From contig JAAZNP010000004.1 of NCBI GenBank assembly GCA_012798235.1, forward strand, positions 2,171 through 66,170: a DNA stretch of 64,000 nucleotides, given 5' to 3'. The stretch comes from Parcubacteria group bacterium. GTDB taxonomy: Bacteria > Patescibacteriota > Minisyncoccia > UBA6257. The notes beneath the pieces were generated by a model. The model did not search any database, was not told the origin of the DNA, and was given only the letters and a program-made list of their open reading frames with translations. The position numbers and the translations under genes are program-made. Below, piece after piece: positions 7,646 to 52,212 of the stretch. The first letter of the stretch is position 1; each line of letters begins with the position of its first letter.

Positions 7646-7942
7646 ATGAAAAAACACAAAAACTTACTATCTTTAAATGAACATCAACTTTTAGATTTTT
7701 TGAAAATCATTAGCGATGAGGAGCGTTTTAAAATTATTCATTTGCTTCGTCAAAAATCTTATTGCGTTTGCGAACTAAGCCAGTTATTAGATTTACCTCA
7801 GAATTTAATTTCTTATCATTTAAAAGTTTTAAAAGATTTTGGAATAATAAATTTAAAGAAAAATGGTCGCAAGAATTTCTATTCCATAAATATTAAAATT
7901 CTTTCTTCTCTTTGCCACATTTTAAACAAAAATTTAACCTAA
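7646..7942 (+). CDS. ArsR/SmtB family metalloregulatory transcriptional repressor
   Basis: Winged HTH, LRQKSYCVCELSQLLDLPQNLISYHLKVLKDFGII, with the CVC metal/redox-sensing motif in helix 3. Confidence 0.85.
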   Translation: MKKHKNLLSLNEHQLLDFLKIISDEERFKIIHLLRQKSYCVCELSQLLDLPQNLISYHLKVLKDFGIINLKKNGRKNFYSINIKILSSLCHILNKNLT

Positions 7943-7950
7943 TTAAAACT

Positions 7951-8205
7951 ATGACGATCAAAATTTTGGGTTCTGGTTGCCCTAACTGCCAGTTATTAGA
8001 GGCACAAACTAAAAAAGCCGTGGAGGAATTAGGATTAAAAGATATTCCAATCGAGCATGTTTATGATATTGATAAAATCATTGAAATGGGTATTGCTTTT
8101 ACTCCAGCTTTAGTAATTAATGATGAAATAAAACTCATGGGTAAGATTCCTTCCGTAGAAGAGTTAAAAGCATTAATTCAAGAATCATTAAAAAATAACA
8201 AATAA
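7951..8205 (+). CDS. Thioredoxin-fold redox-active disulfide protein (small Trx-like, CPNC)
   Basis: MTIKILGSGCPNCQ... ~85 aa. The family is commonly found next to ArsR and COG0701 permeases. The start is assigned to the internal ATG at 7951 rather than the listed 7912. Confidence 0.75.
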   Translation: MTIKILGSGCPNCQLLEAQTKKAVEELGLKDIPIEHVYDIDKIIEMGIAFTPALVINDEIKLMGKIPSVEELKALIQESLKNNK

Positions 8206-8217
8206 AAACTGAAAAAT

Positions 8218-9261
8218 ATGAGAAGATTAACCTTCGGTATTATTTTAATTGTATTAATTTTAGGAATTTTAGTGAGTTATGAGTGGTATGGCGCTTTTAA
8301 AAAATCCCATTTAATTGAGATGGGCATTTATTCTAAAGAACCGTTTCCTATCACCTCAGGCACTCCTTGGTATTTAATTCCCTTTTATACTTTATTATCT
8401 TATTTACAAAAAGCCTGGTTTTGTTTAGGTATGGCTTTTTTAATTGCTGGCGCCGTACAAACTTTTATTCCCAAAGAATTAATCATTAAACATTTAGGCA
8501 AAAGAAGCGCTAAAGCTTATTTAATGGCTGCTTTCGGCGGACCCTTACTTTCAGTTTGCTCTTGCTCGATTATTCCTTTATTTGCTGCCATTAAAAAAAG
8601 AGGCGCTGGTTTAGGACCAGCTATTACTTTTCTTTTAGCCACCCCAGCGATTAATCCAGCAGCGATTATTTTAACTTTTAGTCTATTAAACTGGAAATTT
8701 GTGGCAGGAAGAATTATTCTAGCTTTATCAGCTGCAATTATTACTGGTTTAATTTTAGAAAAAATTTGGGGCCAAGAAGACAATGCCCAATTATCTTCTT
8801 TGAATGTTGAATACCAACATATTCCTTTGAATTTAAAGAAAGATCTAATAGATTGGCTTAAAAATGTTTGGGATTTTATTAAAAAAATTCTTCCTTTAGT
8901 TCTTTTGGGTATTTTTATTATTGGAATAATAAAGATCTTTTTGACCACTGAAGTTATTGGCAAATATTTAGGACCAGGATTATGGCAAACTGCTTTAGCT
9001 TCTATTTTAGGGGTAGTGATGTATACCCCAACCTTAGTAGAGATTCCTTTTATTAGAGAACTATTAGGTTTAGGCATGGGCACTGGTCCAGCTTTAGCCT
9101 TTCTTCTAACTGGTCCAGCTTTAAGCTTGCCTTCCATGCTTGGCATTTCTAAAGTTATTGGCTGGAAAAAGGTTTTAAATTATGCTTTGATGATGTGGAT
9201 TTTAGGTATTATTGGTGGTTTGATTTTTAATTATTTTGTTCCTGTGATACACTTATTATAA
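8218..9261 (+). CDS. COG0701/ArsP-like permease (two-Cys CSCS motif)
   Basis: 347 aa polytopic membrane protein carrying the SVCSCSIIPL motif characteristic of the YraQ/ArsP permease family. Confidence 0.75.
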   Translation: MRRLTFGIILIVLILGILVSYEWYGAFKKSHLIEMGIYSKEPFPITSGTPWYLIPFYTLLSYLQKAWFCLGMAFLIAGAVQTFIPKELIIKHLGKRSAKAYLMAAFGGPLLSVCSCSIIPLFAAIKKRGAGLGPAITFLLATPAINPAAIILTFSLLNWKFVAGRIILALSAAIITGLILEKIWGQEDNAQLSSLNVEYQHIPLNLKKDLIDWLKNVWDFIKKILPLVLLGIFIIGIIKIFLTTEVIGKYLGPGLWQTALASILGVVMYTPTLVEIPFIRELLGLGMGTGPALAFLLTGPALSLPSMLGISKVIGWKKVLNYALMMWILGIIGGLIFNYFVPVIHLL

Positions 9262-9265
9262 ATAC

Positions 9266-9517
9266 ATGAATAATAATTTAATTAAAATTTATTCTTCGCC
9301 AGATTGTCCTTATTGCTATACCGTAAAAGATTATCTTAATCAAAAAGGGATTAATTTTGAAGAAATTGATTTATATGAAGAGCCAGAGAAAAGAAAAGAA
9401 ATGGAAGAAATTTCTCATCAAAAGAACATTCCAGTTTTAGTCATTAATAATGAAGTAGTTGTGGGTTGGAATAAAGAAAAAATTGATGAACTTTTAAAGA
9501 AATATGGATTTATATGA
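9266..9517 (+). CDS. Glutaredoxin/NrdH-like protein (CPYC)
   Basis: The sequence YSSPDCPYCYTVKDYL is present. 83 aa. Confidence 0.8.
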   Translation: MNNNLIKIYSSPDCPYCYTVKDYLNQKGINFEEIDLYEEPEKRKEMEEISHQKNIPVLVINNEVVVGWNKEKIDELLKKYGFI

Positions 9518-10424
9518 TCTAATTATTATTGGCGCTGGACCAGCAGGAATTACTGCTGGTATTTATGCTGCGCGCAAAAAGATTAAAACTCTTTTAATTA
9601 CCAAAGATTTTACTGGCCAAGTTGGTTTATCTTGGAAAATAGAAAATTATCCTGGTTTTAAACAAATTAGTGGTCTAAAGTTAATGGAAAATTTGAAAAA
9701 TCATTTAAAAGAATACGAAATTGAAATCAAAAATTTTGAAGAAGTAAAACAAATTGTAAAAGATAATAATTACTTTCAAACTATTACTAATGAAAATAAA
9801 TATTTAGCAAGAACATTAATTATTGCCACTGGTGCTTTACCTAAAAAATTAGCGATAAAAAACGAAAAAAAATTTCTTGGCCACGGCTTATCTTATTGTT
9901 TAACTTGCGATGAAAAAGCTTTTGAAGGAAAAATTGTGGCAGTGATTGGCGGTGGTAATGCTGGCGCCGAAGCTGCTCTAGAATTACAAAAATTTTGTCC
10001 CAAAATTTATCTTTTAGAATATTTAGAAAATTTAACTGGTGATGAAATTTTGAAAGAAGAAGTGTTAAATAGTCCCTCGATTACAGTTATTACTAATGCT
10101 CAAGTATTAAGTTTTGAGGGTGAGAAAGAATTAGAAAAAATTATTTTTAAAGACAGAAAAACAAATAAAGAAAAAGAAATTTTAATTAATGGCTGCTTTG
10201 TTGAAATTGGAACAAAATCAAATACCGAATTTTTAGAAGGGTTAGTAGAATTAAATGAGAAAAAAGAAATCATCGTTGATCCTAAAACAATGGTAACCTC
10301 AGTAAAAGGAATTTTTGCTGCTGGCGATGTTGGTAATTTTAATCAAAAACAAATTATTCTTGCCTGTGGTCAGGGCGCTTTAGCAGCTTTATCAGCTTAT
10401 CAATATTTAAAAACATTAAAATAG
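9504..10424 (+). CDS. trxB: Thioredoxin-disulfide reductase
   Basis: The FAD motif GAGPAG, the redox-active CLTCD (CxxC) and the NADPH-binding motif GGGNAG are all present. It overlaps grx by 14 nt. Confidence 0.85.
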   Translation: MDLYDLIIIGAGPAGITAGIYAARKKIKTLLITKDFTGQVGLSWKIENYPGFKQISGLKLMENLKNHLKEYEIEIKNFEEVKQIVKDNNYFQTITNENKYLARTLIIATGALPKKLAIKNEKKFLGHGLSYCLTCDEKAFEGKIVAVIGGGNAGAEAALELQKFCPKIYLLEYLENLTGDEILKEEVLNSPSITVITNAQVLSFEGEKELEKIIFKDRKTNKEKEILINGCFVEIGTKSNTEFLEGLVELNEKKEIIVDPKTMVTSVKGIFAAGDVGNFNQKQIILACGQGALAALSAYQYLKTLK

Positions 10425-10428
10425 AAGT

Positions 10429-12024
10429 ATGATTAATAAAAACAAAATTTTGGGCTTATTTTTAGTAATTACTTTAATTCTTTCGTTTTTCTCTTTTTAT
10501 TCATCTAGTAGAGCTCAAGAAAAAGAAGTTAATTTGTATTTTTTCTGGGGTCAAGGTTGTCCTCATTGTGCTCACGAGAAGCCATTTCTTGAATCATTAA
10601 AATCAAAATATCCTCAGTTAAAAATTTATGATTTTGAAGTTTGGTATAACCAGAAAAACAGAGATTTATTAATTGAGGTAGGAAAAAAACTAAAAATAGA
10701 TATTAGTGGCGTTCCTTTAACAATTATAAATGATCAGCCGATTATCGGTTATTATGATGATACTACCACCGGCAAACAAATCGAAGATTTAATAATTAAA
10801 TGTCTAAATAGCTCTTGTAAGGATTCGGTTAGAGAAATTGTTTTTAAAAATTTAACCACCACTACTAAAAAAGAAACTCCTTCAACCACTACTACCACTA
10901 CTATCTCTCAAAAAGAAATTAAAGCCTACCTTTTTTGGGCCGAAGGTTGTCCCTTATGCTCTGCTGAAAAGACTTTTTTAAATCAACTTAAAGAAGAATA
11001 TTCGAATTTAAATATTACCTATTTGAATGTTTCTAAAAATAACAATAATGATATTTTAAAACAAACAGTTGAAGAACTGAATATTGAAAATCCCAGTTTG
11101 CCATTATTAATAATCGGAGAAAAAACAATAATTGGGTGGCGCGATCAAGATACATCCGGCAAAGCAATACGCGATGCCATTAATTGTTATTTAGAAAATG
11201 AATGTCCTGACTTAGTTGGTCAAGTTTTAACTCGCTTTAATACTTTTGGTCAATTTACCAAAGATAAACCTTTGCCAGAAAAAATCAAAATTCCTTTAAT
11301 TGGAGACATAGAAACTAAAAATCTTTCCTTGCCGGCTTTAGCAATTATTATTGGTGGACTTGATGGTTTTAATCCTTGTGCGATGTGGGTGCTGATTTTC
11401 TTAATTACCTTACTTTTGAAAATGCAAGATCGCAAAAGAATGTGGATTTTAGGCTCTACTTTTATCGCTACCTCATCTGCTGTTTATTTTCTTTTTATGA
11501 ATGCTTGGCTTAATTTAATCCTCTGTTTAGGATTTATTTTTTGGATTAGGTTAGTGGTTGGGATCGTAGCTTTAGGTAGCGGTGTTTATAATTTGAGAGA
11601 TTATTTCACTAATCAGGAAGCTGCTTGTAAAGTAACTGATGCGAAACAAAAGAAAACGACCATGGATAAAATGAAAGATATTGTCCATCGCCGATCTTTC
11701 TTATTAGCTTTAATTGGTATTATTCTTTTAGCTGCTTCTATAAATTTAATCGAATTAATTTGTTCTGCTGGTTTTCCGGTGATTTTCACCCAATTATTGG
11801 CCTTGAGTAATTTAGCTAAATGGCAATATTATCTTTATATGCTTTTATACATTTTTGTCTTTATGCTTGATGATTTGATTGTTTTTATTGGCGCGATGAT
11901 TACTTTAAGAGTTACGGGTATTACTAATAAATATTCTCGCTTGTCTCATTTAATTGGTGGCATTTTGATGCTTTTAATTGGTTTGCTTTTGATCTTTAAG
12001 CCAGAATTATTGATGTTTGGCTAA
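10429..12024 (+). CDS. DsbD/CcdA-like thiol:disulfide interchange membrane protein with two N-terminal extracytoplasmic thioredoxin-like domains (CPHC, CPLC)
   Basis: A signal/TM segment is followed by two Trx-like modules separated by a Thr-rich linker. Downstream is a CcdA-like TM domain (GGLDGFNPCAMWVL). Confidence 0.75.
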   Translation: MINKNKILGLFLVITLILSFFSFYSSSRAQEKEVNLYFFWGQGCPHCAHEKPFLESLKSKYPQLKIYDFEVWYNQKNRDLLIEVGKKLKIDISGVPLTIINDQPIIGYYDDTTTGKQIEDLIIKCLNSSCKDSVREIVFKNLTTTTKKETPSTTTTTTISQKEIKAYLFWAEGCPLCSAEKTFLNQLKEEYSNLNITYLNVSKNNNNDILKQTVEELNIENPSLPLLIIGEKTIIGWRDQDTSGKAIRDAINCYLENECPDLVGQVLTRFNTFGQFTKDKPLPEKIKIPLIGDIETKNLSLPALAIIIGGLDGFNPCAMWVLIFLITLLLKMQDRKRMWILGSTFIATSSAVYFLFMNAWLNLILCLGFIFWIRLVVGIVALGSGVYNLRDYFTNQEAACKVTDAKQKKTTMDKMKDIVHRRSFLLALIGIILLAASINLIELICSAGFPVIFTQLLALSNLAKWQYYLYMLLYIFVFMLDDLIVFIGAMITLRVTGITNKYSRLSHLIGGILMLLIGLLLIFKPELLMFG

Positions 12025-12077: not shown

Positions 12078-12171
12078 ATTAAAAAACTTGAAAATAAAAA
12101 TAAGAGGAGTATTATGAATATATATTCATAAAGGTCGGAAAGATTAAAATAAATAATTTAAAATTACTACT

Positions 12172-12387
12172 ATGCCAAGATTTGATGGAACCGGCCCTAT
12201 GGGTTTAGGGCCAAGAACTGGTCGTGGCTTAGGTCCTTGTGGAAGAGGTTATGGTTATCGTCGCTTTGCTTCTCCTAAAAATGAAGCTGCTGCTTTAGAA
12301 GATGAGATTCACACATTAGAAGAAGAATTAAAAGCTTTAAAAGAAGAGAAAGCAGCTTTAGACAAGGAACTAAAGGACCAAAAATAA
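12172..12387 (+). CDS. Small DUF5320-like protein (Gly/Pro-rich N-terminus with a single Cys, followed by a coiled coil)
   Basis: MPRFDGTGPMGLGPRTGRGLGPCGRGYG... followed by a heptad-rich EELKALKEEK tail. A 5-codon uORF (MNIYS) preceded by an AAGAGGAG RBS lies upstream at ~12104-12121. Confidence 0.6.
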   Translation: MPRFDGTGPMGLGPRTGRGLGPCGRGYGYRRFASPKNEAAALEDEIHTLEEELKALKEEKAALDKELKDQK

Positions 12388-12394
12388 AAATTAA

Positions 12395-12424
12395 AAGATC
12401 TCTTTTCAACAAAGAGGTCTTTTA
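12395..12424 (+). terminator. Rho-independent terminator
   Basis: aaaagatctctttTCAACaaagaggtctttt hairpin plus T-run. Confidence 0.55.
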
Positions 12425-12453
12425 ATATAATAATAAATTAATACATACAATAT

Positions 12454-12741
12454 ATGCCGAGACCAAGAATGCATCGTAGGATAAGGTGTCGCCTAAATGC
12501 TTTTTATTTTAAACCTCAGGGAATACCAATGAGGTATTTAGATGTGATAGAATTAACCCTAGAAGAAGCCGAGGCTTTAAGATTAAAAAATCTTTTAGAT
12601 TTAGAGCAGAAAGAAGCCGCTAAAAAAATGAAAGTCTCGCAACCTACCTTTTAAAGGGATTTAACTTCGGCTTATAAAAAAATAGCAGAGGCTTTAATTA
12701 CTGGTAAGGCTATTAAAATTGTTTGCGATGATAATAAATAA
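12454..12741 (+). CDS. DUF134 (UPF0251) DNA-binding protein, interrupted by an in-frame TAA at 12652-12654. The N-terminal 66 codons and a further 28 in-frame codons follow the family consensus.
   Basis: MPRPRMHRRIRCRLNAFYFKPQGIPMRYLDVIELTLEEAEALRLKNLLDLEQKEAAKKMKVSQPTF-TAA-RDLTSAYKKIAEALITGKAIKIV... The family consensus continues ...PTFxRILKSARKKIAxALVxGKAI across exactly this point. Confidence 0.6.
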
Positions 12742-12756
12742 TTAATCACTCAATTT

Positions 12757-13977
12757 ATGGACAATCAAAACGAAATGTTAAAAACTGCTCAGGAATTAAT
12801 TGAAAAAACTGGGCGAAAATTAAATCTTTTTCAAGAGGAAATTGATTTTCTTATTCAGCCGGATAGAGTAATTGAAATTAAGGTGCCGGTAAAAATGGAT
12901 AACGGCGTAATAAAAACTTTTGTTGGCTATCGTTCTCAGCATAATAATGTTTTAGGCCCTTATAAAGGAGGTATTAGATTCCATCAAAATGTTTCACGGG
13001 AGGAAGTGATCGCTCTCTCTACTTTAATGACTTTAAAATGTGCCGCTAATAGTTTACCTTTAGGAGGAGGAAAAGGCGGAGTAATTGTTAATCCAAAAGA
13101 ATTATCCGAAGAAGAATTAGAAAGATTATCAAGAGCTTATGCTAAAGCGATTGCTCCTTTTATTGGAGAAGACGTTGACGTGCCAGCACCTGATGTTAAT
13201 ACTGATGGTAGAATTATGATGTGGATGTTAGATGAATATGAAAAAACAATTGGTAAAAAATCACCCGCTACTTTTACTGGTAAACCAGTTGAATTTGGTG
13301 GTAGTTTAGGCAGAACTGAGGCTACTGGTAGAGGTGGAGTTATTGTCATGGGAAATTTATTAAAAGCTTTAAATAAAGATTATAAAACTATTGCCATTCA
13401 AGGATTAGGGAATGTTGGTTCTTATTTTGCAAAAATAGCATTTGAAAAAGGCTTTAAGATAGTGGCTTTATCTGATTCAAAGGGTGGAATTTATAATGAA
13501 AATGGCTTAAATCCTGATGAGGTAATAAAAATTAAAGAAGAAACTGGTAAAGTTAGTGATTACTCTGATGGTAAAGTTATTACTAACGAAGAATTATTAG
13601 AATTGCCGGTTGATATTTTAGTGCCAGCTGCTTTAGAAAATGTAATTACTAAGGATAATGCTTCAAATATCAAAGCCAAACTTATTATTGAAATGGCTAA
13701 TGGTCCAATTACCGAAGAGACTTATCCAATTTTGGAAGAAAAAGGAATTATTTCTGCGCCTGATATTTTAGCCAATGGCGGTGGCGTAATTGTTTCTTAT
13801 TTTGAATGGTTGCAAAATAGAAAGAATGAAAAATGGACAGAAGAAGAAGTTAATCAGAAATTAGAAGAACAATTAAAAACTGCCTTAAAGGAAATTTTAG
13901 ATATTAGCCAAGAATATAAAGTAAACTTAAAAGAAGCAGCTTTTATTTCTGCTTTAAAGAAAATTACCAAAAAATAA
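12757..13977 (+). CDS. gdhA: Glutamate dehydrogenase (Glu/Leu/Phe/Val dehydrogenase family)
   Basis: GPYKGGIRFH is present, along with the catalytic Lys region GGGKGG and a C-terminal Rossmann GLGNVG. Confidence 0.85.
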   Translation: MDNQNEMLKTAQELIEKTGRKLNLFQEEIDFLIQPDRVIEIKVPVKMDNGVIKTFVGYRSQHNNVLGPYKGGIRFHQNVSREEVIALSTLMTLKCAANSLPLGGGKGGVIVNPKELSEEELERLSRAYAKAIAPFIGEDVDVPAPDVNTDGRIMMWMLDEYEKTIGKKSPATFTGKPVEFGGSLGRTEATGRGGVIVMGNLLKALNKDYKTIAIQGLGNVGSYFAKIAFEKGFKIVALSDSKGGIYNENGLNPDEVIKIKEETGKVSDYSDGKVITNEELLELPVDILVPAALENVITKDNASNIKAKLIIEMANGPITEETYPILEEKGIISAPDILANGGGVIVSYFEWLQNRKNEKWTEEEVNQKLEEQLKTALKEILDISQEYKVNLKEAAFISALKKITKK

Positions 13978-23582: not shown

Positions 23583-24286
23583 TTTTTACTATTAGCAGTA
23601 TTTTAGGTGTCGTGCCTATTGCTTTATGGTTGATGTTTTTCTTATGGCAAGATATTAAAAAGCCCGAACCATTAAAATGGCTTTTGATTTTATTTGGTGT
23701 CGGTATTTTAATTACTCCGCTTGTTTGGTATGGCGAAGGATTATTAATGAAAGTTTTAAAAATTGATTTGAATACCAACCTTTCATTATCAAGCGTTATT
23801 ACTGTGTATAGTGGCATTGCTATTATTGAAGAATTAACTAAATTTTTTAGCGCCTCCTTGGTTTTAAAGAAAAACAAGTATTTCGATGAAGCGATTGATG
23901 TAATGATTTATTTAATTATCCTAGCTTTGGGTTTTGGTTTGGTAGAAAATATTTTAGCTGCCAGTCAAGAAATCAATGAAGGCAATTTACTATTATCAGT
24001 ACTACAAACAATGAGTTTAAGATTCGTAGGAGCTAATTTGCTACACGCCCTTTCCAGCGGAATAATTGGTTATTTCTGGGCCCTAAAATTAATGCTCAAA
24101 AAAAATTATTTTCTCTACGAAGGATTAATTTTAGGCATTCTCTTGCACGCTGTCTTTAATATTGCTATTATTAAATTTGGCGGCCCAGCCGTATTTTTCG
24201 TTAGTTTGGGATTATTTTTAACAGCAATTTTTCTTCTTTGGGCATTCGATTCCTTAAAGACAATTAAAAAACCAATAAAATATTAA
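23573..24286 (+). CDS. PrsW-family intramembrane metalloprotease-like protein
   Basis: Polytopic protein carrying the PrsW motifs EELTKF (EExxK), LLHALSSG (FxxxH-like) and LHAVFN (HxxxN). Confidence 0.55.
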   Translation: MAIVFTISSILGVVPIALWLMFFLWQDIKKPEPLKWLLILFGVGILITPLVWYGEGLLMKVLKIDLNTNLSLSSVITVYSGIAIIEELTKFFSASLVLKKNKYFDEAIDVMIYLIILALGFGLVENILAASQEINEGNLLLSVLQTMSLRFVGANLLHALSSGIIGYFWALKLMLKKNYFLYEGLILGILLHAVFNIAIIKFGGPAVFFVSLGLFLTAIFLLWAFDSLKTIKKPIKY

Positions 24287-24291
24287 ATTAT

Positions 24292-24684
24292 ATGGCAGAA
24301 AAAAAGAAATCTTTAAAAATTAATAATAATGCTTCTTGGCCCTCCTCAGTTGAAGAAGGGGAATTAGCTATTGATTTATACGAAACTAAAGATAGTTTAG
24401 TGCTCCAAGCAGTTATTGGCGGAATGAAAGCTGATGACTTAGATATTTCTATCACTAATGATATGATTACTATTCGGGGCGAAAGGCAAAGAGAAGAAAG
24501 TGGTCAGATTGATAAATTTTATTACGACGAATGTTTTTGGGGAGCTTTTTCTCGCTCTTTAGTTTTACCGCAAGAAGTAGATGCTGATAAAGCCAAAGCC
24601 ACCATTAAAAACGGCCTCCTCACAATAGTTTTGCCTAAATTAGAAAAGACCAAAAAGAAAACTCTGCAAATTGAAGAAAAATAA
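24292..24684 (+). CDS. Hsp20/alpha-crystallin family small heat-shock protein
   Basis: The ACD domain GLLTIVLPK is present. 130 aa. Confidence 0.8.
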   Translation: MAEKKKSLKINNNASWPSSVEEGELAIDLYETKDSLVLQAVIGGMKADDLDISITNDMITIRGERQREESGQIDKFYYDECFWGAFSRSLVLPQEVDADKAKATIKNGLLTIVLPKLEKTKKKTLQIEEK

Positions 24685-24691
24685 GAGAGGG

Positions 24692-24773
24692 GCCGATGTG
24701 GTGAAATTGGTAAACACGCGAGGTTTAGGACCTCGTGCCGCAAGGCTTGAAGGTTCGAGTCCTTCCATCGGCA
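24692..24773 (+). tRNA. tRNA-Leu (anticodon TAG), long variable arm
   Basis: The acceptor is GCCGATG/CATCGGC, the anticodon loop TTTAGGA and the variable arm GCCGCAAGGC. Confidence 0.7.
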
Positions 24774-24802
24774 CGTTAACTTTGACAGTATAGATTATAA
24801 TA

Positions 24803-24834
24803 AAAAACTCTCTCTTAAATAAGAGAGAGTTTTA
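24803..24834. terminator. Bidirectional rho-independent terminator
   Basis: aaaaaactctctcttaaataagagagagtttta. Confidence 0.75.
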
Positions 24835-24851
24835 AGTTAGAGAAAGTATTT

Positions 24852-25205
24852 TTAGAAGAATTTGCATTGCGCCCCCTTACCAAATAAGACACAGATCAAG
24901 TACACCAATCCTCGAGCTAATAAAGCAATGCCAACGCCAATTAAAGCATAAATGAGCATATTTAATGCACTCTTTACTTTTTCTTCATTGCCAGCAGAAG
25001 TTACATAAGTAAAACCAGCAGCAATCAGCATAATTACAGCAATTAAAAGCACGATACCAAAAAACCAATTGGTAATAGTTTTAATAACACCATTTGTTCC
25101 CCAAGGATCGATTTCAATCCAAGGCGCTTCCGGCGGTTGGGCTAAGGCTAATAGTGCTCCAGAAAGAAGCGTAATTAATGAAATAGTTAAAATTAGTTTT
25201 TTCAT
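24852..25205 (-). CDS. Pilin-like two-helix protein, paralog 1 (TrbC/VirB2-like core; short C-terminal tail)
   Basis: A signal peptide precedes the conserved core WFFGIVLLIAVIMLIAAGFTYVTSAGNEEKVKSA..LIYALIGVGIALLARG, shared with the three upstream paralogs. Confidence 0.55.
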   Translation of the reverse strand: MKKLILTISLITLLSGALLALAQPPEAPWIEIDPWGTNGVIKTITNWFFGIVLLIAVIMLIAAGFTYVTSAGNEEKVKSALNMLIYALIGVGIALLARGLVYLICVLFGKGAQCKFF

Positions 25206-25296
25206 AATGATAATTTTATTTTAAGCTATCGACCTTATTGACTCTTTATTAATTATATAGATTTAATCAGTAAAAAGTCAAATTATTTTAGTTATT

Positions 25297-25857
25297 TTAA
25301 ACAAAATTAAAATATTTAGTTCCGCCACCTCCACCAGCGCCGCAGCATAATTCTCTACAAGTTATAGATAAAGAATCGCACCAATCTTCTAAAGACGGAG
25401 AACCGCTAGTGCAATCGCAAATTTTACTCAAATTAGGTATATTTTCTTGTGCTTGCTCGACAATGACATCGACGATATTTTGATTTGCTTCATTATAATT
25501 ATAAGAAGAGGTGCTGGTAGTTTTTCCTTGAAGAAAATTTTGAACAAACGTCGGGATACCTCGAGCTAATAAAGCGATAGCCACACCAATTAAAGCAAAA
25601 ATAATAGTTTTGGAAGCAATTCTAATTTTATCTTCATTTCCACCGGCAGTAATATAAGTAAAACCAGCATAAATAAGCATAATGACAGCTATAGTCAAAG
25701 CAATGCCAAAAAACCAATTTAAGGCATTTTCTAAAATAGTCCAAATACTAATATTACTCGTATCGGGAATTTTAGGCATAGTTGCTGGAGGCGCTGCCCA
25801 AGTCACAGGAAAAGAAATAAAGAGAAAAATAAAGATCAAGAAAATAATTTGTTTCAT
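25297..25857 (-). CDS. Pilin-like two-helix protein, paralog 2, with a Cys/Gly-rich C-terminal tail
   Basis: Same core (WFFGIALTIAVIMLIYAGFTYITAGGNEDKIR). The tail reads CDCTSGSPSLEDWCDSLSITCRELCCGAGGGGG. Confidence 0.55.
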   Translation of the reverse strand: MKQIIFLIFIFLFISFPVTWAAPPATMPKIPDTSNISIWTILENALNWFFGIALTIAVIMLIYAGFTYITAGGNEDKIRIASKTIIFALIGVAIALLARGIPTFVQNFLQGKTTSTSSYNYNEANQNIVDVIVEQAQENIPNLSKICDCTSGSPSLEDWCDSLSITCRELCCGAGGGGGTKYFNFV

Positions 25858-26405: not shown

Positions 26406-27302
26406 TTATTTACATGCATTTGGGTCGCTAGGATCGCATTCATTGGGGCAAGGTGGACATAAATGGTTATTACCCGTGGCACAGTAAGTTTCGAATTGTT
26501 TGGTGTTACAGTTTTTAACCGTTCTACACACAGTATAATTTTCACAATAAACCATGAGTTGTCCGCCTTCACACGGTCCGCCCTGGTTTGGGGGTTCTGG
26601 ATTTTTAGGTTCTGCTATAATCTTTGAAGGATCTGCTGGAACACAGCAAATAGTACCCTCGGGGCAATGTGTAATATTGGGATCAGTTAGAACCACTGTG
26701 GCAGCATCACAATTAGGATTCCAATTTAACCAACCTTCCATTTTTTCTACACAAGCATAACCCGTCATATCACCGCACCAATTTTCTGAAGAACCACCAT
26801 TGTAGTTACCTCCACCATTATAGTTACCACCACCATTATAGTTACCACCATCAATATTGTTACCACCATTACTATAACTTATCTTTTTTTCTTCACATTT
26901 TAATTGCCACCAAGTGCCAGTATAATCAGAACCACCAATCTGAGCCACTAGCCAAAAAACAGTATTTACAATTAACCACGAGCAAAGAATAATCGCTAAG
27001 CCAATTAAGGCACTAGCCAAACCTTTTTGACCAGCTTGAATATTAGCTTCATTGCCGCCAGAAAAAATCCAACGAAAGCCACCAACAATAGCAAAGATCA
27101 CGACAATCGTAAAAGCCAGAGTTAAGGCATAATGCAAAACATTTTCAAATAAAACTAATAAATCACAGGTAGTACAGGGATCTTCATCAGGGCCACCACA
27201 AGATACTAATCCTTTCGCCCCAGTTGTGAACGGAAGCAAGAAAATGAACAAGAAAAAAATTACAATTAATTTTTTCATTGATTTTTTGTTTGTTGATACC
27301 AA
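26406..27302 (-). CDS. Pilin-like two-helix protein, paralog 4, with a long (GGNYN)n and Cys-rich tail
   Basis: Divergent core VVIFAIVGGFRWIFSGGNEANIQAG. The tail has an NGGGNYNGGGNYNGG repeat and ~20 Cys. It overlaps the upstream gene by 28 nt. Confidence 0.5.
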   Translation of the reverse strand: MVSTNKKSMKKLIVIFFLFIFLLPFTTGAKGLVSCGGPDEDPCTTCDLLVLFENVLHYALTLAFTIVVIFAIVGGFRWIFSGGNEANIQAGQKGLASALIGLAIILCSWLIVNTVFWLVAQIGGSDYTGTWWQLKCEEKKISYSNGGNNIDGGNYNGGGNYNGGGNYNGGSSENWCGDMTGYACVEKMEGWLNWNPNCDAATVVLTDPNITHCPEGTICCVPADPSKIIAEPKNPEPPNQGGPCEGGQLMVYCENYTVCRTVKNCNTKQFETYCATGNNHLCPPCPNECDPSDPNACK

Positions 27303-39017: not shown

Positions 39018-41129
39018 ATGAATAAAAACTCACTTTTGCTTTTCCCTGCTTTAATGGTGGGTAGTGTCCTTTTACTTGTTACTGCTTTCTCTTTTTTAAC
39101 AGCAAACCCTTCAACATTAACAGCTTCGATAAATCCACCACCTTCTCCATCTTGTCCTTTTGAAGAAGGATTTACTCCAGCTAATGTTTCTTTAACTTCG
39201 CCCTTAAATTTAAGACAAGAAGCCCTTTTATTAAAGGCTTTTTTAGTTAGAGTAGAAAATTGTCCTGATAGTTATTCTTTAAATACTTGTTTAGGTCTTT
39301 TCCAGGAATATTGCGTGGAGCAAGGTAAATGTTCTAACCATTATTCTTTTGAGAAACCCGCTGTTATTACTTCTGAGATTAAAACATTACTATGCTCCGA
39401 ATGGACTAAACGCTACATTCTGCTTTACCAAAGTTCTAATTGGTCCTATTTACAAAATCTATTCGCCTCTAAAAATACCACAGTTTCTGATTGGTTAAAA
39501 ACTAATTACTCTCAATATGTAAGTTGGAAACAAAGCGTTACTTCTGGAGGTACAACTAGCACTGGAACTGGCACTGGAACTGGCACTGGAACTGGCACTG
39601 GAGGTGGTACTGGCACTGGAGGTGGTACTAGCACTGGAACTGGAGGCGGAGGTACCAGTGGAGGTAGCTCTGGTGGTACTATAACTACCTTTACTCCAGA
39701 GTCTTGTGCTGCTTATGGTCAAGCTATGGGAGTAGGAAATAGTTATTCTTGTCAGTTTGCAGAAAATTGTGGCAGCACTGAAGTTGCTGGCCCTTGCCCT
39801 ATTGGAGGAAAGATGTATTTTTGTTGTCTTACCCACCCTACTAAATGTTCGGATTTTGCCAAACAAGGTTATGCTTGTATTGCGCCTTATTCAGGAATTC
39901 GCGAAAATTGTCAACCTGGTACTCAATTACCAGGGGCGATGTGCAATGCAGAATATCAAGTGGTTTGCTGTAAACCTAAAACAGCAACTAAATGTGTGGC
40001 AGTTACTACTCTTAGTGGATACTGTGGAGGACAACCAAGATATAATAGGGATTGGAAATGTGAGCCAGCGGCACCAGGAGAAAATGATGATGGCTGTGAT
40101 GTAGATCTTATTAACCCTTGTCGAGTGAAATATGGTACTTATTCGGGAATTTGCGATCTCAATTATTGTGTACCTTCTTCTGAATGTAAGGGTTTAATTA
40201 ATAATTTATATGGTTGTCCTGATAGTACGAATGTCTGCTGTAATTATAAAACAGAAGAAATACCAGTAAATCAACTTAATATGTGCGATCATACTTGTGT
40301 TAAACCTTATCCCAATTCTCAATATCCAAATGATATTTGTGGTCCCAACTATTATCAAGTACTTGATAAGAAATGTAGTATAAGTGGTTATATTTGTTGC
40401 GCTCCTAAAAGTACAAATGCTGCTTGCGGTAATGGAATTTTAGAATCAGGCGAAGGATGTGATGATGGTAATACTATTAGTGGCGATGGATGCTCTGGTA
40501 CTTGCCAAATTGAAAATGTTACTCCTGTTTGTGGCAATGGAATTTTAGAGCAAGGCGAAGAATGTGATGATAATAATACTATTAGTGGTGATGGTTGTTC
40601 CTCTTCTTGCAAAAAAGAAAATAAGAGTTCTGCTATTTGCGGAAATGGAAAAGTAGAAGCAGGTGAAGATTGCGACGGTTCAGTTAATAAAACTTGTGCC
40701 GATTACGGATTCAATAGCGGTACGGTTAAGTGCACTAGTTGTAAATACGATATTTCAAATTGTCACAATACGCAGACTACCTGTTGGTATTTAGCATGTG
40801 CAAATGGTATCTGCGTAAGCAAAGAAACTACGGATTGCCCCCATGCTGATGAAGGTGGTTGTACCGGATTAGGTAGTTTATGTGGCCAAGATTATTGTAT
40901 TCAGCATGCTTCTCAAGGTTATGGTTGTAGTAATAATTGCCAACCAGATAGTGAAATCAATGCTATTGGGTGCGAACCACCGCTAAAGTGTTGTAAACCT
41001 GTGGCTTCATGTACCCCTAATTGCGACGATAAAGAATGCGGCGATGATGGTTGTGGTGGTTCTTGTGGTAGTTGTCCCCGCAGTACTCCTAATTGTATAA
41101 ACGGAAGATGCTCAGCGGCTTTTCAATAA
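39018..41129 (+). CDS. Large secreted cysteine-rich protein with a (TG)n low-complexity linker and three Myxococcus-type cysteine-rich repeats
   Basis: A signal peptide is present. The TGTGTGTGTGTGGGTGTGGG linker is encoded by the (ACTGGAACTGGC)n DNA repeat at 39561-39603. Three CGNGxxExGExCDDGNTISGDGCSxxC units span 40425-40650. About 90 Cys in total. Confidence 0.65.
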   Translation: MNKNSLLLFPALMVGSVLLLVTAFSFLTANPSTLTASINPPPSPSCPFEEGFTPANVSLTSPLNLRQEALLLKAFLVRVENCPDSYSLNTCLGLFQEYCVEQGKCSNHYSFEKPAVITSEIKTLLCSEWTKRYILLYQSSNWSYLQNLFASKNTTVSDWLKTNYSQYVSWKQSVTSGGTTSTGTGTGTGTGTGTGGGTGTGGGTSTGTGGGGTSGGSSGGTITTFTPESCAAYGQAMGVGNSYSCQFAENCGSTEVAGPCPIGGKMYFCCLTHPTKCSDFAKQGYACIAPYSGIRENCQPGTQLPGAMCNAEYQVVCCKPKTATKCVAVTTLSGYCGGQPRYNRDWKCEPAAPGENDDGCDVDLINPCRVKYGTYSGICDLNYCVPSSECKGLINNLYGCPDSTNVCCNYKTEEIPVNQLNMCDHTCVKPYPNSQYPNDICGPNYYQVLDKKCSISGYICCAPKSTNAACGNGILESGEGCDDGNTISGDGCSGTCQIENVTPVCGNGILEQGEECDDNNTISGDGCSSSCKKENKSSAICGNGKVEAGEDCDGSVNKTCADYGFNSGTVKCTSCKYDISNCHNTQTTCWYLACANGICVSKETTDCPHADEGGCTGLGSLCGQDYCIQHASQGYGCSNNCQPDSEINAIGCEPPLKCCKPVASCTPNCDDKECGDDGCGGSCGSCPRSTPNCINGRCSAAFQ

Positions 41130-41150
41130 AATTTTAATTAAATAAATACT

Positions 41151-41549
41151 ATGAAAAAAATTATTATTTTTCTCATTCTCTTCGTAATTTTAATAATTGG
41201 AGGAAGTGCTATTTATTGGTACATTAATAATCAAGCTAAATCAACTAAAATAAGCGGAACTTGTGGCGTAGATAAGCCAATAACATATTGCAGTGGCGAG
41301 AAAGTTTGTTATGGTTATTGTAATGATTGTGAATGCCGCGGTATTCAATGTATTAATGATAGTAATTGTCAGAAATTATATAAAGAAACATTCTCAGAAG
41401 GGATAAGGAATAGTCTTAAAGAATGCGGTAATAAAGAAGTAGTAACCTATTGTAGTAATAACAAACTCTGCAGTGCAGTTTGTAATATTTGCGGTTGTCA
41501 ATCAGTGACTTGTTATTCTGATTCTAATTGTGCTAGTAAACCTTTCTAA
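41151..41549 (+). CDS. Small secreted Cys-rich protein with an internal duplication
   Basis: Signal/TM anchor. YCSGEKVCYGYCNDCECRGIQCINDSNCQK is duplicated as YCSNNKLCSAVCNICGCQSVTCYSDSNCASK. Confidence 0.55.
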   Translation: MKKIIIFLILFVILIIGGSAIYWYINNQAKSTKISGTCGVDKPITYCSGEKVCYGYCNDCECRGIQCINDSNCQKLYKETFSEGIRNSLKECGNKEVVTYCSNNKLCSAVCNICGCQSVTCYSDSNCASKPF

Positions 41550-41580
41550 ATTAATATTTTTGAATACAATATTTTATTTT

Positions 41581-41604
41581 AAAACCGCTCTCATGGGCGG
41601 TTTT
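41581..41604 (+). terminator. Rho-independent terminator
   Basis: aaaaccgctctcatgggcggtttt. Confidence 0.6.
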
Positions 41605-41715
41605 AAAGTTGCGTTTTAGTGATTTTTGGTATAAAATATTTAAGCTTTATATACAAAAGTATTTTGTAATTTTTATAATTTTATATTATAAGTTTTTGTT
41701 CCTAAGTTGTATTAA

Positions 41716-41797
41716 GGAGGGGTGGCAGAATGGCAATGCGCCAGTCTTGAAAACTGGTGCCCGTAAGGGCTTGCAGGTTCGAATCCTGTCCCCTCCG
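41716..41797 (+). tRNA. tRNA-Ser (anticodon TGA), long variable arm
   Basis: The acceptor is GGAGGGG/CCCCTCC and the anticodon loop CTTGAAA. Confidence 0.65.
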
Positions 41798-43331: not shown

Positions 43332-43404
43332 GGCTCGGTGGCGAAGTAGCTAACGCTGCGGTCTGCAAAACCGTTATTCGTGGGTGCAAATCCCACCCGG
43401 GCCT
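43332..43404 (+). tRNA. tRNA-Cys (anticodon GCA)
   Basis: The acceptor is GGCTCGG/CCGGGCC and the anticodon loop CTGCAAA. Confidence 0.65.
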
Positions 43405-43449
43405 CTTGAAAAATTCGAAAATTTTAGTAAGATATTTCTGTTATTGTTT

Positions 43450-43536
43450 GCCCAGGTGGCGGAATCGGTATACGCAAAGGACTTAAAATCCTTGGCTCTT
43501 CGGGGCTTGTGGGTTCGAGTCCCACCCTGGGCACCA
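43450..43536 (+). tRNA. tRNA-Leu (anticodon TAA) with encoded CCA
   Basis: The acceptor is GCCCAGG/CCTGGGC, the anticodon loop CTTAAAA and the variable arm GCTCTTCGGGGCT. The 3' end reads ACCA. Confidence 0.7.
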
Positions 43537-43563
43537 AAATTATTAATAAAATTTGATAAAATT

Positions 43564-44847
43564 ATGAAACCCATAGTTAATTTTATAAAACAACATAAAA
43601 CTTCTTTATTAATAAGCGTTTGTGTTTCTTTGCTAACCATTTTGTTTTGTGTATTAATAGCAGGAGGCATTTTCTTGTTTAATAAAAATTTAATTGTTAA
43701 AGTTGCTGACTTTGTAATTAATAATTCTTCCATTAAGTTTAATGCTTCTTCTCAAAAACCATCTTATGAAATTTTGCCTGAAGAAGCGCGAATTGTTAAT
43801 ATCGTAGAAAAAACAAACCCGGCAGTCGTGTCCATTATTATTAGTAAAAATGTCCCTATTATTGAAAAATATTATCAGCAATTTAATCCTTTTGGAGATG
43901 ATTTTTGGAGTCAATTTTTTGGAAATGAATTTAATTTTGAAATTCCGCAATATCGTCAAAAAGGCACAGAGAAAAAAGAAATTGGTGGCGGTTCTGGTTT
44001 TTTGATTTCTGCTGATGGTTTGATTATTACCAATAAGCATGTAGTTAACGACAAGGATGCTGAATATACAGTTTTAACTAATGATGGTAAAAAATATGAT
44101 GCTCAGATAATTGCTAAAGATTCCTTTCTCGATATCGCTATTTTAAAAATAAAGGGCAATAATTTTACTTATTTAGATTTGGGCGACTCTGATGAACTAA
44201 AATTAGGGCAAACAGTAATTGCGATTGGCAATGCCTTAGGTGAATTTAGAAATTCCGTGTCTGTAGGAGTTATTTCTGGTCTTTCTCGGACGATTACTGC
44301 TAGCGATTCTCAAGGTAAAGTGGAATCTCTAGAAAAAGTTATTCAAACTGATGCTGCTATTAATCCGGGTAATTCGGGCGGACCATTATTAGATTTAAAT
44401 GGGGATGTTGTTGGGGTGAATGTTGCTATGGAAACAGCAGCAGAGAATATTGCTTTTGCTTTACCTATCAATATGGTTAAACCAATTATTGAATCCGTAA
44501 AAACTTATGGCGAAATTATTAGGCCTTATTTAGGGATTCGTTATTTAGCTATTGATGAAAATGTTAAGACAAAAAATAATTTATCAGTGAATTATGGCGT
44601 TTTAGTAGTAAGGGGCAACTCTCCTGATGAATTGGCAGTTATTCCTGGCTCTCCTGCTGATAAAGCTGGAATTCAAGAAAATGATATTATTTTAGAGATT
44701 GATGGCATTAAATTAACGACTGATAAATCATTAGCCAGTATTATTAATCAAAAAAAGGTAGGGGAGATAGTTAAATTAAAAATTCTGCATAAGGGGCAAG
44801 AAAAAACAATAGAAGTAAAGCTAGAAAAAGCCCCGTCAAATCTATAA
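43564..44847 (+). CDS. HtrA/DegP-family serine protease with a PDZ domain
   Basis: An N-terminal TM is followed by the trypsin-like domain with the His region TNKHVV, an Asp, and GNSGGPL, then a PDZ domain. The start is set at MKPIVNF. Confidence 0.8.
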   Translation: MKPIVNFIKQHKTSLLISVCVSLLTILFCVLIAGGIFLFNKNLIVKVADFVINNSSIKFNASSQKPSYEILPEEARIVNIVEKTNPAVVSIIISKNVPIIEKYYQQFNPFGDDFWSQFFGNEFNFEIPQYRQKGTEKKEIGGGSGFLISADGLIITNKHVVNDKDAEYTVLTNDGKKYDAQIIAKDSFLDIAILKIKGNNFTYLDLGDSDELKLGQTVIAIGNALGEFRNSVSVGVISGLSRTITASDSQGKVESLEKVIQTDAAINPGNSGGPLLDLNGDVVGVNVAMETAAENIAFALPINMVKPIIESVKTYGEIIRPYLGIRYLAIDENVKTKNNLSVNYGVLVVRGNSPDELAVIPGSPADKAGIQENDIILEIDGIKLTTDKSLASIINQKKVGEIVKLKILHKGQEKTIEVKLEKAPSNL

Positions 44848-45840: not shown

Positions 45841-45929
45841 GGAGGGTTGGCTGAGCGGTCCAAAGCAACGGTTTGCTAAACCGTGACCGCCTAAAAAGCG
45901 GTCCGTGGGTTCGAATCCCACACCCTCCG
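45841..45929 (+). tRNA. tRNA-Ser (anticodon GCT), long variable arm
   Basis: The acceptor is GGAGGGT/ACCCTCC and the anticodon loop TTGCTAA. Confidence 0.65.
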
Positions 45930-46117
45930 CTATCCTTCGCTGTTCCACAGCTACGGAATAGCAAGCTAGCCTTCGCTAGAGTTTTATTAAGTAAGGTATT
46001 CCGAAGCCGTAAGACGAAGGATGTCCTCCGCAATGACCTCAGTTTAGGTGATTAAACAGACTGAGGTTTTCTATTGCGTCAAAGAATTAATTATGATAAA
46101 ATAAAGAAGATAAAATT

Positions 46118-46378
46118 ATGCTTAAATCATCGACCAAAGAAAAAATAATTAAAAAATTTGCGACCAAGAAATCGGACACTGGCTCGCCAGAAGTTCAGAT
46201 CGCTTTATTAACTAAAGAAATTGAAGAATTGGTAAAGCATTTAAAAAAACACCCTAAAGATTTTCATTCTCGTCGCGGTTTATTAGGTATGGTTTCTAAA
46301 AGAAGAAGGATATTGGCTTATCTAAAAGAAAAATCAATTCGCCGTTATAATAAAATTCAAAAAACTCTCAAATTGTAA
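46118..46378 (+). CDS. rpsO: 30S ribosomal protein S15
   Basis: [11 protein letters not shown]...[16 protein letters not shown]. Confidence 0.9.
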
Positions 46379-46381
46379 TTT

Positions 46382-46933
46382 ATGGTAATAAGACATAAAA
46401 ACCAACGCGTAATTGTTTTAATCGATGTTCAAAATCTATATCATTCGGCTAAAAATCTTTACGGCGCCCGGGTTAATTTCAAAAATTTACTTTTAGAAGC
46501 AGTTAGCGGAAGAAATTTAATTAGAGCAATTGGCTATGTGGCCAAAGCTGATGAGCCTGGTGAGGCTTCTTTTTTTGACGCTTTGGAAAAAGCTGGTATT
46601 GAGACGAGGATTAAGGATTTGCAGGTTTATCCTGATGGTACCAAAAAAGGAGATTGGGATGTTGGTTTAGCTATTGATGCCATAAGATTAAGTTCTAAAG
46701 TAGATGTGGTTGTTTTAATTAGTGGTGATGGCGATTTTATTCCTTTAGTTGAATATTTAAGAGCTCAAGGCAATCAAGTAGAAATTATTGGCTTCGGAAG
46801 AACTACTTCCACCTTTTTAAAAGAAATAGCTGATGACTTTATTGATTTAGATTCGAAGCCAGATTATTTTTTGTTAAAAGGTGGCAACCGTAATTTAGTA
46901 AGTAAATTGCCCAAAATTATTAAAATAAAGTAA
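46382..46933 (+). CDS. NYN-domain (LabA/DUF88-like) putative RNase
   Basis: The PIN-like fold has acidic residues D15, D114 and D116 (IDVQN...ISGDGDF). Confidence 0.65.
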   Translation: MVIRHKNQRVIVLIDVQNLYHSAKNLYGARVNFKNLLLEAVSGRNLIRAIGYVAKADEPGEASFFDALEKAGIETRIKDLQVYPDGTKKGDWDVGLAIDAIRLSSKVDVVVLISGDGDFIPLVEYLRAQGNQVEIIGFGRTTSTFLKEIADDFIDLDSKPDYFLLKGGNRNLVSKLPKIIKIK

Positions 46934-46936
46934 GTT

Positions 46937-49054
46937 ATGCAAAAAAAGACTTTTCAATTATTGGTTAATAACAAACCGATTGAATTAGAATTTTCTAATT
47001 TAGCTGAATTAGCCAATGGTTCTGTGTTAGCTAAACTTAAAGAGACGGTTGTTTTGACTAACGTGGTAATGGGTAATTCTGACCGTCCTGATTTAGATTT
47101 TTTCCCCTTATTAGTTGATTACGAAGAGAAATATTATGCTGCTGGTAAAATATATGGCAGTCGTTTTGTGCGCCGCGAATCACGACCATCAGAAATAGCT
47201 ATTCTTTTAGCTAGATTAATTGATCGTACCATTAGGCCTTTATTCTCGCCTTTAATGCGCCGCGATGTTCAGGTAGTAACAACTTGTTTATCAATTGATG
47301 AAGAAAATGACCCTGATATTTTAAGCATTATTGCCACTTCAATGGCTTTAGGAGCCTCAGATATTCCTTGGCAAGGGCCTGTCTCAGCAGTGAGAATTGG
47401 TTGGTCAAAAGAAAAAGGTTTTTTGATTAATCCTACTTATGCCGAGCGCACAGATCTAGCTTTAGATATAATTGTTTCTGGCCCTGATGATCAAATTAAT
47501 ATGTTAGAAGGCGGCGCCCAGGAAGTACCTGAGGATATTGTTAATCAAGCTTTAGTAATTGCTCAAAAAGAAATTACTTCCTTAAACGACCAACAGAGAA
47601 AAATCATTCAAGAAATTGGCAAACCCAAGATTAATATTTTATTAAAAACCATTAATGAACAATTGCGGCAGGACGTTAAAACATATTTATCAGATAAATT
47701 AGAGCCAATTGTTTTTTCTCAAGATAAAAAAGAAAAAGACATTAATTTGGCCTTATTGAAACAAAATTTAACCGATTATTTAAAAGAAAAAAATTATTCT
47801 GAAGAACAATTAACCGATGTAGAGTATTTATTTAATGATGAAATTGATCAATTGGTTCACCAAAATGTTTTAAAATATGATAAGAGACCAGACGGAAGAA
47901 AGTTAAATGAAATTCGACCCTTGGAAGCAATGATTGATATTCTGCCTCGGACGCATGGCTCAGCCTTGTTTATGCGAGGCATTACCCATGCTTTATCAGT
48001 GGTAACATTGGGTTCTCCCGCGGATGTTTTAACCTTACAAGGAATGGAATTTTCTGGTGAAAAAAGATTTATGCATCATTATAATTTTCCTGGCTATTCT
48101 TCAGGTGAAGTTGCTCCTTTAAGAGGCCCAGGAAGAAGAGAAATTGGTCACGGCGCTTTAGGTGAAAAAGCTTTATTACCGATGATTCCCTCTAAAGAAG
48201 AATTTCCTTACACTATTAGAGTAGTTTCAGAAATTGTTTCTTCTAATGGCTCCACTTCCATGGCCGCTACTTGTGCTTCTTCTTTGGCATTAATGGCTGC
48301 TGGAGTGCCGATAAAAGAACATGTTGCTGGTATTGCGATGGGTTTAATGAGTGATGAACAAGGAAATTACAAAATTCTCACTGATATTCAAGGGCCCGAG
48401 GATCATTATGGAGATATGGATTTAAAAGTGGCTGGTACTAAAAATGGCATTACTGCTTTGCAAATGGATTTAAAAATCAAAGGCGTTACTCCGCAATTAT
48501 TAAAAGAAGAATTAGAGCAAGCCAAAGAAGCGCGCTTCAAGATTTTAGAAGTTATGAATAAAGTAATTGCCAAACCGCGTCAAGAATTATCGCCTTTCGC
48601 TCCCCGAATCTTTACTATTAAAATTAAACCCGAAAGAATTGGCGAATTAATTGGCCCGGGCGGCAAAGTTATTCAAGCAATCACTCAACAAACTGGAGCT
48701 AATATTGATATTGAAGAAGATGGTACAGTTTTTATTACCGCTGATAATAAAGAAATAGCAGAATTAACCATCAAAGAAATTCATAATGTTTTAAAAGATT
48801 TTAACGAAGGAGATATTATTACTGGGAAAATTACTCAGATTAAAGATTTTGGTGCTTTTGTTGATTTGGGGCATCGTAAAGAAGGCTTACTTCATATTTC
48901 TGAATTAGCGCCTTACCGAGTGAATAAAGTTGAAGATATTGTTCACCCCGGAGAAGAGGTTACTGTTAAAATTAAAAAAGTTGAATCTAACGGTAAAATT
49001 TCTCTTTCGCTTAAAGATGTGAAATCTTATAAAAAAGACAAAAAAAGAAATTAA
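46937..49054 (+). CDS. pnp: Polyribonucleotide nucleotidyltransferase
   Basis: Two RNase PH domains (FMRGITHAL) followed by KH and S1. 705 aa. Confidence 0.9.
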   Translation: MQKKTFQLLVNNKPIELEFSNLAELANGSVLAKLKETVVLTNVVMGNSDRPDLDFFPLLVDYEEKYYAAGKIYGSRFVRRESRPSEIAILLARLIDRTIRPLFSPLMRRDVQVVTTCLSIDEENDPDILSIIATSMALGASDIPWQGPVSAVRIGWSKEKGFLINPTYAERTDLALDIIVSGPDDQINMLEGGAQEVPEDIVNQALVIAQKEITSLNDQQRKIIQEIGKPKINILLKTINEQLRQDVKTYLSDKLEPIVFSQDKKEKDINLALLKQNLTDYLKEKNYSEEQLTDVEYLFNDEIDQLVHQNVLKYDKRPDGRKLNEIRPLEAMIDILPRTHGSALFMRGITHALSVVTLGSPADVLTLQGMEFSGEKRFMHHYNFPGYSSGEVAPLRGPGRREIGHGALGEKALLPMIPSKEEFPYTIRVVSEIVSSNGSTSMAATCASSLALMAAGVPIKEHVAGIAMGLMSDEQGNYKILTDIQGPEDHYGDMDLKVAGTKNGITALQMDLKIKGVTPQLLKEELEQAKEARFKILEVMNKVIAKPRQELSPFAPRIFTIKIKPERIGELIGPGGKVIQAITQQTGANIDIEEDGTVFITADNKEIAELTIKEIHNVLKDFNEGDIITGKITQIKDFGAFVDLGHRKEGLLHISELAPYRVNKVEDIVHPGEEVTVKIKKVESNGKISLSLKDVKSYKKDKKRN

Positions 49055-52128: not shown

Positions 52129-52200
52129 GGGCGTGTAGCTCAGTGGTAGAGCGATTGTCTTATAAACAATAGGTCCCAGGTTCGATCCCTGGCACGCCCA
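52129..52200 (+). tRNA. tRNA-Ile (anticodon TAT)
   Basis: The acceptor is GGGCGTG/CACGCCC and the anticodon arm ATTGT-CTTATAA-ACAAT. Confidence 0.55.
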
Positions 52201-52212
52201 CGTCCTAACTAG

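Follow-up and report, generated by a model that had tools for sequence, protein, structure and literature searches.

An in-frame TAA in a DUF134 gene of an uncultured Parcubacteria bacterium: an ordinary one-base nonsense change or a consensus error

Among bacteria, known examples of stop codon recoding include the reading of UGA as selenocysteine, of UAG as pyrrolysine and of UGA as glycine in the Gracilibacteria and Absconditabacteria, along with phages in which a stop codon is reassigned. Both release factors, RF1 and RF2, recognize UAA, and no other bacterial stop is less leaky. With respect to the DUF134/UPF0251 family (PF02001), in which the stop examined here is located, literature searches for DUF134, DUF5320, UPF0251 and COG1342, for an experimental function of the family, and for the accessions of the runs and proteins returned nothing relevant, and a sequence search of the PDB found no solved relative of the DUF134 protein.

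The interrupted DUF134 gene and the predicted fold of its product

The window, by which we mean the whole 64-kb stretch of DNA that was analyzed, is AT-rich (33.5% GC) and gene-dense under the standard bacterial code. An ORF of 66 codons was found on its + strand at 12454-12654, which starts with ATG at 12454, ends with the residues KVSQPTF and is closed by TAA at 12652-12654. This first TAA is followed by 28 in-frame sense codons (RDLTSAYKKIAEALITGKAIKIVCDDNK) that extend up to a second TAA at 12739-12741. The locus includes the following features, in which L001 refers to a near-clonal sister contig presented in the next section:

12172..12387, + strand, intact DUF5320 gene of 71 aa (PF17253, E 1.6e-11), identical in L001
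12403..12431, + strand, promoter-like site TTTTCA-17-TATAAT ahead of the DUF134 gene, a consensus match only (10/12 hexamer matches)
12454..12651, + strand, codons 1-66 of the DUF134 gene (PF02001, 44.7 bits), covering the N-terminal region, helices 1-2 of the helix-turn-helix (HTH) and four residues of the recognition helix
12652..12654, + strand, premature TAA stop, with base 12652 being T here and C (CAA, Gln67) in L001
12655..12738, + strand, 28 original codons downstream of the stop, covering what is left of the recognition helix as well as the C-terminal strand, base for base the same as in L001
12739..12741, + strand, original TAA of the 95-codon gene, the same stop as in L001, with the genes of relatives ending at 90-98 aa

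The relationship of the two segments to the family was examined by profile comparison. The 66-aa ORF alone was found to match PF02001 at 44.7 bits over profile positions 6-67 of 98, and the fused sequence at 73.5 bits over positions 6-90; both the ORF and the fused 95 aa exceed the gathering score of the family (27 bits). The window ORF, ending at position 67, does not span the whole domain with its HTH recognition helix; the sister allele (protein P0121 of L001) covers the domain in full. Judged by these matches, the window copy is a truncated DUF134 member. NCBI lists the 66-aa ORF, on a contig of 67.7 kb, as a DUF134 domain-containing protein (NMB92051.1), an entry that represents the truncated product and is unsuitable as a representative of the family. 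The Pfam profile Sigma70_r4_2 aligned to residues 33-77 (E 2.2e-4), with the alignment reaching full length once the 28 codons were appended. Because the score rises from 44.7 to 73.5 bits, and because an existing 95-aa protein (P0121) equals the fused sequence once Gln is put in place of the stop, the DUF134 similarity downstream of the stop is, at the level of sequence, real and not a product of chance. The initial annotation, made from the sequence alone, had described an ORF of 66 codons, a TAA and 28 codons continuing DUF134, and this description agreed with our results in its coordinates and its sequence; its placement of the stop exactly between two conserved blocks did not, as the TAA was instead found to replace the conserved Gln67 within the block SQPTFQR.

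A structural model of the 95-aa form was generated by AlphaFold2 from a 52-sequence alignment (mean pLDDT 81, with values >90 over residues 31-80). The modeled elements include a strand (residues 31-35), three helices (36-47, 52-58 and 63-83) and a final strand (86-90). The top PDB matches identified by Foldseek were sigma-70 region 4 DNA-binding domains, including that of SigE region 4 on -35 DNA, with fits of 0.7-0.9 Å rmsd over 47-50 columns at E-values that were weak (0.025-0.1), the domain being short. Overall, the model, the Foldseek matches and the Sigma70_r4_2 alignment predict a sigma-70 region 4-type HTH fold for the reconstructed 95-aa form. The stop after residue 66 sits 4 residues into helix 63-83, such that this 21-residue recognition helix is shortened by 17 residues and the final strand is lost. 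Truncated to this extent, the 66-aa product is probably inactive; given the mode by which such HTH domains bind DNA, it would probably be unable to do so, and we infer from the model that the allele would be a null or near-null of a small predicted regulator.

The sister allele, related loci and the gene neighborhood

At 90% identity, the 66-aa protein was found to cluster with one other member only, P0121, a 95-aa protein from the Logan assembly of run SRR30978041, which is 100% identical to the fused translation of the window with Gln at the stop. The corresponding contig, L001 (Logan SRR30978041, 1144 bp), covers the DUF5320 gene, the DUF134 gene and the start of a glutamate dehydrogenase (GDH) gene, and is identical to window positions 12108-13251 at 1143 of 1144 bases. 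As the only mismatch is at 12652 (T in the window, C in L001), the stop corresponds to one C-to-T transition (CAA to TAA); the L001 codon at this site is CAA (Gln) and the contig encodes an intact 95-aa protein. A single mutation, thus, separates the stop from the sense codon of an intact allele, and the view of the initial annotation that a single stop codon lies in an otherwise intact DUF134 gene is upheld by this contig. Five more Logan contigs (L125-L129, from SRR30978038, SRR30978039 and SRR30978041) were found to carry genes of the window, including those for HSP20, S15/NYN and a 132-aa protein, and to correspond to window positions 24158-25843, 39573-41764 and 45901-48088. The same organism was detected in this manner, at 99.95-100% DNA identity, in the assemblies of three sequentially numbered SRA runs. 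Across L001 and these five contigs, 7,208 of 7,210 non-redundant window bases match; the differences are at 12652 and at 41144 (A in the window, C in L129), the latter being intergenic, in a 21-bp spacer between a gene ending at 41129 and a gene starting at 41151. By this comparison of sequences, the window and Logan populations are near-clonal (about 99.97% identical), which implies that no change separating them would be younger than the stop. Where conserved sequence continues past an in-frame stop, a near-clonal independent assembly of this kind offers a rapid means of resolving the case.

The distribution of the TAA allele was also investigated. Among the indexed assemblies that were looked up, the allele was seen in this metagenome-assembled genome (MAG) alone, and an exact look-up found the 66-aa product on record in no other assembly; exact look-ups of the window GDH and of the window UPF0102 protein likewise returned no record. 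An exact-DNA search with the stop site, in which the variable base was set to N, gave no match in GTDB genomes or JGI metagenomes, and, at the exact-match level for this site, neither the GTDB species representatives nor the JGI metagenomes include the species.

Next, the codon at the site was compared among 124 related loci, comprising 123 with DNA from GTDB genomes and JGI metagenomes plus L001. Glutamine was encoded at 98 of these (CAA at 47 and CAG at 51) and another sense codon at the remaining 26, with a stop at none. Similarly, Gln occupies the stop position in an alignment of the 29 closest homologs (64-81% identity), and Gln67 is invariant in the 52-sequence alignment of close homologs (about 51-52 sequences). 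The initial annotation had suggested this comparison of orthologs and had named, as a finding that would speak against its reading, DUF134 proteins that end naturally after PTF; none was detected among the 124 loci, and the reading stands. No natural form ending near residue 66 was identified in this set, save one sequence cut by a contig end; with the same exception, the lengths range from 90 to 169 aa in 123 loci, and the 119 other listed homologs are of 90-118 aa. In L045, the nearest relative with conserved synteny (81% identity), the arrangement Trx3-ArsP-DUF5320-DUF134(95 aa)-GDH is intact. When compared with the ortholog in L045, the pN/pS ratio was about 0.37 for the 28 post-stop codons and about 0.17 for the 5′ part, such that the post-stop codons carry, by this sequence comparison, a signature of past purifying selection; with respect to L001, the same codons displayed no drift at all.

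Of the 115 related loci for which upstream sequence was available, 45 were found to have a DUF5320-like ORF just upstream in the same orientation; DUF5320 is, therefore, a frequent but not a universal partner of DUF134. The initial annotation was correct in identifying the neighbor as DUF5320-like, and its designation of this gene as the usual partner went too far. Located between the two genes is a 13-bp inverted repeat (AAAAGATCTCTTT / AAAGAGGTCTTTT; 12393-12423, + strand), with one G.U pair as RNA and a 5-nt loop, which overlaps the promoter-like site at 12403-12431 and could serve as a weak terminator of the DUF5320 gene or as an operator for the HTH protein. The DUF5320-DUF134 pair is directly preceded by a series of thiol-redox genes (7939-12024, + strand), including the genes of: (i) a Thioredoxin_3 protein of 88 aa; (ii) an ArsP_1 permease; (iii) a Pyr_redox_2 protein that is thioredoxin-reductase-like; and (iv) a 531-aa membrane protein, in which two thioredoxin-like domains are fused to a membrane domain. 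This gene order is partly kept in L045. Only the 531-aa double-thioredoxin membrane type recurs near DUF134 (17 of 123 loci), a frequency too weak to link a DUF134 regulon to the thiol-redox genes; as the wider DUF134 neighborhood varies, no regulon is proposed.

Several other features of the window were recorded. A tRNA-Ile with the anticodon UAU was called by ARAGORN at 52129-52201 (+ strand). Most bacteria read AUA by a lysidine-modified CAU tRNA, and a UAU tRNA-Ile is uncommon; its presence may be connected with the AT-rich codons used in this Parcubacteria genome. Matches to T4SS_pilin (PF18895) were detected in two genes (24852-25205 and 26406-27302, both on the - strand), one of which adjoins a gene for a solute-binding protein. 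A mechanically called ORF at 43384-44847 (+ strand) has its GTG start inside tRNA-Cys (43332-43405) and crosses tRNA-Leu (43450-43536); because of this overlap with both tRNA genes, its true start lies further downstream and the call is an ORF-calling artifact.

Decoding of the stop and origin of the changed base

The window was inspected for further disrupted genes, both as same-frame ORF pairs split by one stop and as overlapping ORF pairs, and none was found in the 64 kb. Two of the triplets that had appeared suspicious were resolved into separate complete genes, encoding Thioredoxin_3 followed by the ArsP permease (7732-9261) and S15 followed by an NYN protein (46100-49054). Four overlapping ORF pairs were rejected as broken genes, with each gene having its own Pfam domains. 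A search for other in-frame TAAs in conserved genes, as advised by the initial annotation and run here within the window, therefore uncovered only separate complete genes among those examined.

Two explanations were considered in which the codons downstream of the stop would still be translated. Programmed read-through or local recoding of the UAA, for example by a near-cognate tRNA-Gln that inserts Gln, would provide a low level of full-length regulator beside the 66-aa form; when UAA is decoded by a near-cognate tRNA, Gln is the residue that tends to be inserted, and the wild-type protein would be regained by its insertion here, and the 28 codons of the 3′ part are intact and in frame, a circumstantial point in favor of this explanation. 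The 3′ part is, however, intact because the change is so young. Counter to what is expected for programmed recoding, the stop is not conserved among orthologs, being found at 0 of the 124 loci, and the near-clonal sister has CAA at the site. TAA was also found to end 40 of the 48 long non-overlapping ORFs in the window and is, thus, a normal terminator here; this same count, together with ORFs that are long and compact under table 11, led us to reject a genome-wide reassignment of TAA. None of the 18 tRNAs found in the window has the UUA anticodon that would read UAA, and a stimulatory RNA structure was not detected in the 131 nt around and after the stop, which fold no better than their shuffles (MFE -18.9 versus a shuffle mean of -18.4 kcal/mol, z -0.16). 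We, thus, consider read-through very unlikely. It is likewise highly improbable that the TAA is real and tolerated, whether by low-level near-cognate read-through with Gln or by a 66-aa fragment that is itself functional (e.g., in binding DUF5320), such that the allele would be a down-tuned or altered variant and not a null. The second explanation holds that the 66-aa protein is a natural short member of the family, or that separate translation of the 3′ 28 codons gives a second piece that associates with the first. While the 66-aa ORF is annotated by NCBI as a normal protein, no relative ends near residue 66, the break would fall inside an HTH helix, and no in-frame ATG, GTG or TTG is present in 12655-12738, which excludes an ordinary second cistron; we regard this explanation as barely credible. 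The programmed read-through or two-piece protein offered among the possibilities of the initial annotation is, therefore, not supported, and the locus need no longer be counted among putative cases of TAA recoding in the Candidate Phyla Radiation.

The other two possibilities of the initial annotation, a very recent nonsense mutation and a sequencing or assembly error, both survive the comparison with the near-clonal CAA contig. We favor the former as the probable, though far from assured, explanation, in which the DUF134 gene of this organism carries a real and very young nonsense allele with loss of function. By this account, a single C-to-T transition at 12652 would have changed CAA, which encodes the conserved Gln67, to the ochre stop TAA, and the resulting allele would be carried by the source strain of the MAG or by the majority of its population. 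Translation would end normally at the TAA, leaving a 66-residue product in which the N-terminal region and helices 1-2 are retained, and the loss of most of the recognition helix and of the final strand would yield a loss-of-function allele of a small transcription regulator. The alternative, which we view as possible though doubtful, is that the organism has CAA and an intact 95-aa DUF134 protein, with the T being miscalled or derived from the path of an assembler through a minority variant. Consistent with such an error, C is found in an independent assembly from what is essentially the same population, no other indexed assembly contains the TAA allele or its 66-aa product, the change strikes an invariant residue of a conserved regulator, and the changed base lengthens a T run (TTTC to TTTT), a context handled poorly by some sequencing platforms. 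Against it, the rest of the window is clean, with all 48 long ORFs intact and the neighboring and overlapping ORF pairs that were checked being separate genes; the lack of another disrupted gene in 64 kb argues against a generally error-prone assembly, and the window agrees with independent contigs at all but two of the bases compared. Furthermore, substitution errors in a consensus of many reads are rarer than real strain-level SNPs, and C-to-T is the commonest spontaneous change. The type of change does not distinguish the two: about 5% of the possible substitutions in the 1144-bp stretch create a stop (1.2% of transitions), such that one nonsense change among only two differences in 7.2 kb is uncommon yet unremarkable, and is equally expected of an error or of a fresh, unselected mutation. 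Overall, we infer that the T is more probably real in the cells than a consensus error. The finding amounts at most to one strain-level loss-of-function allele of an uncharacterized small regulator in an uncultured Parcubacteria bacterium and, as such, has little biological weight.

Comparison with described systems

The locus resembles described cases of bacterial stop codon recoding in that a conserved gene is interrupted by an in-frame stop, beyond which the conservation continues. It differs in that the known cases involve UGA or UAG, are conserved across orthologs or genome-wide, and are served by dedicated tRNAs or RNA elements, whereas here the codon is UAA, is present in one assembly only and is the usual terminator, with no tRNA or RNA signal seen. 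With respect to the DUF134/UPF0251 family (PF02001), the 95-aa form is a close likeness in its score of 73.5 bits, its predicted sigma-70 region 4-like HTH and its position after a DUF5320 gene, as is often found; the window ORF departs from the family in covering profile positions 6-67 only, without the recognition helix. The correspondence is closest to an ordinary ochre nonsense allele or young pseudogene, in terms of: (i) the CAA-to-TAA transition; (ii) a gene that is otherwise collinear and undecayed; (iii) an intact allele in a near-clonal population; and (iv) a sense codon in all relatives. Nothing sets the locus apart from the textbook case, save the question of a real base versus a consensus error. 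Thus, the in-frame TAA is an ordinary one-base nonsense change or a consensus error and not an instance of special decoding.
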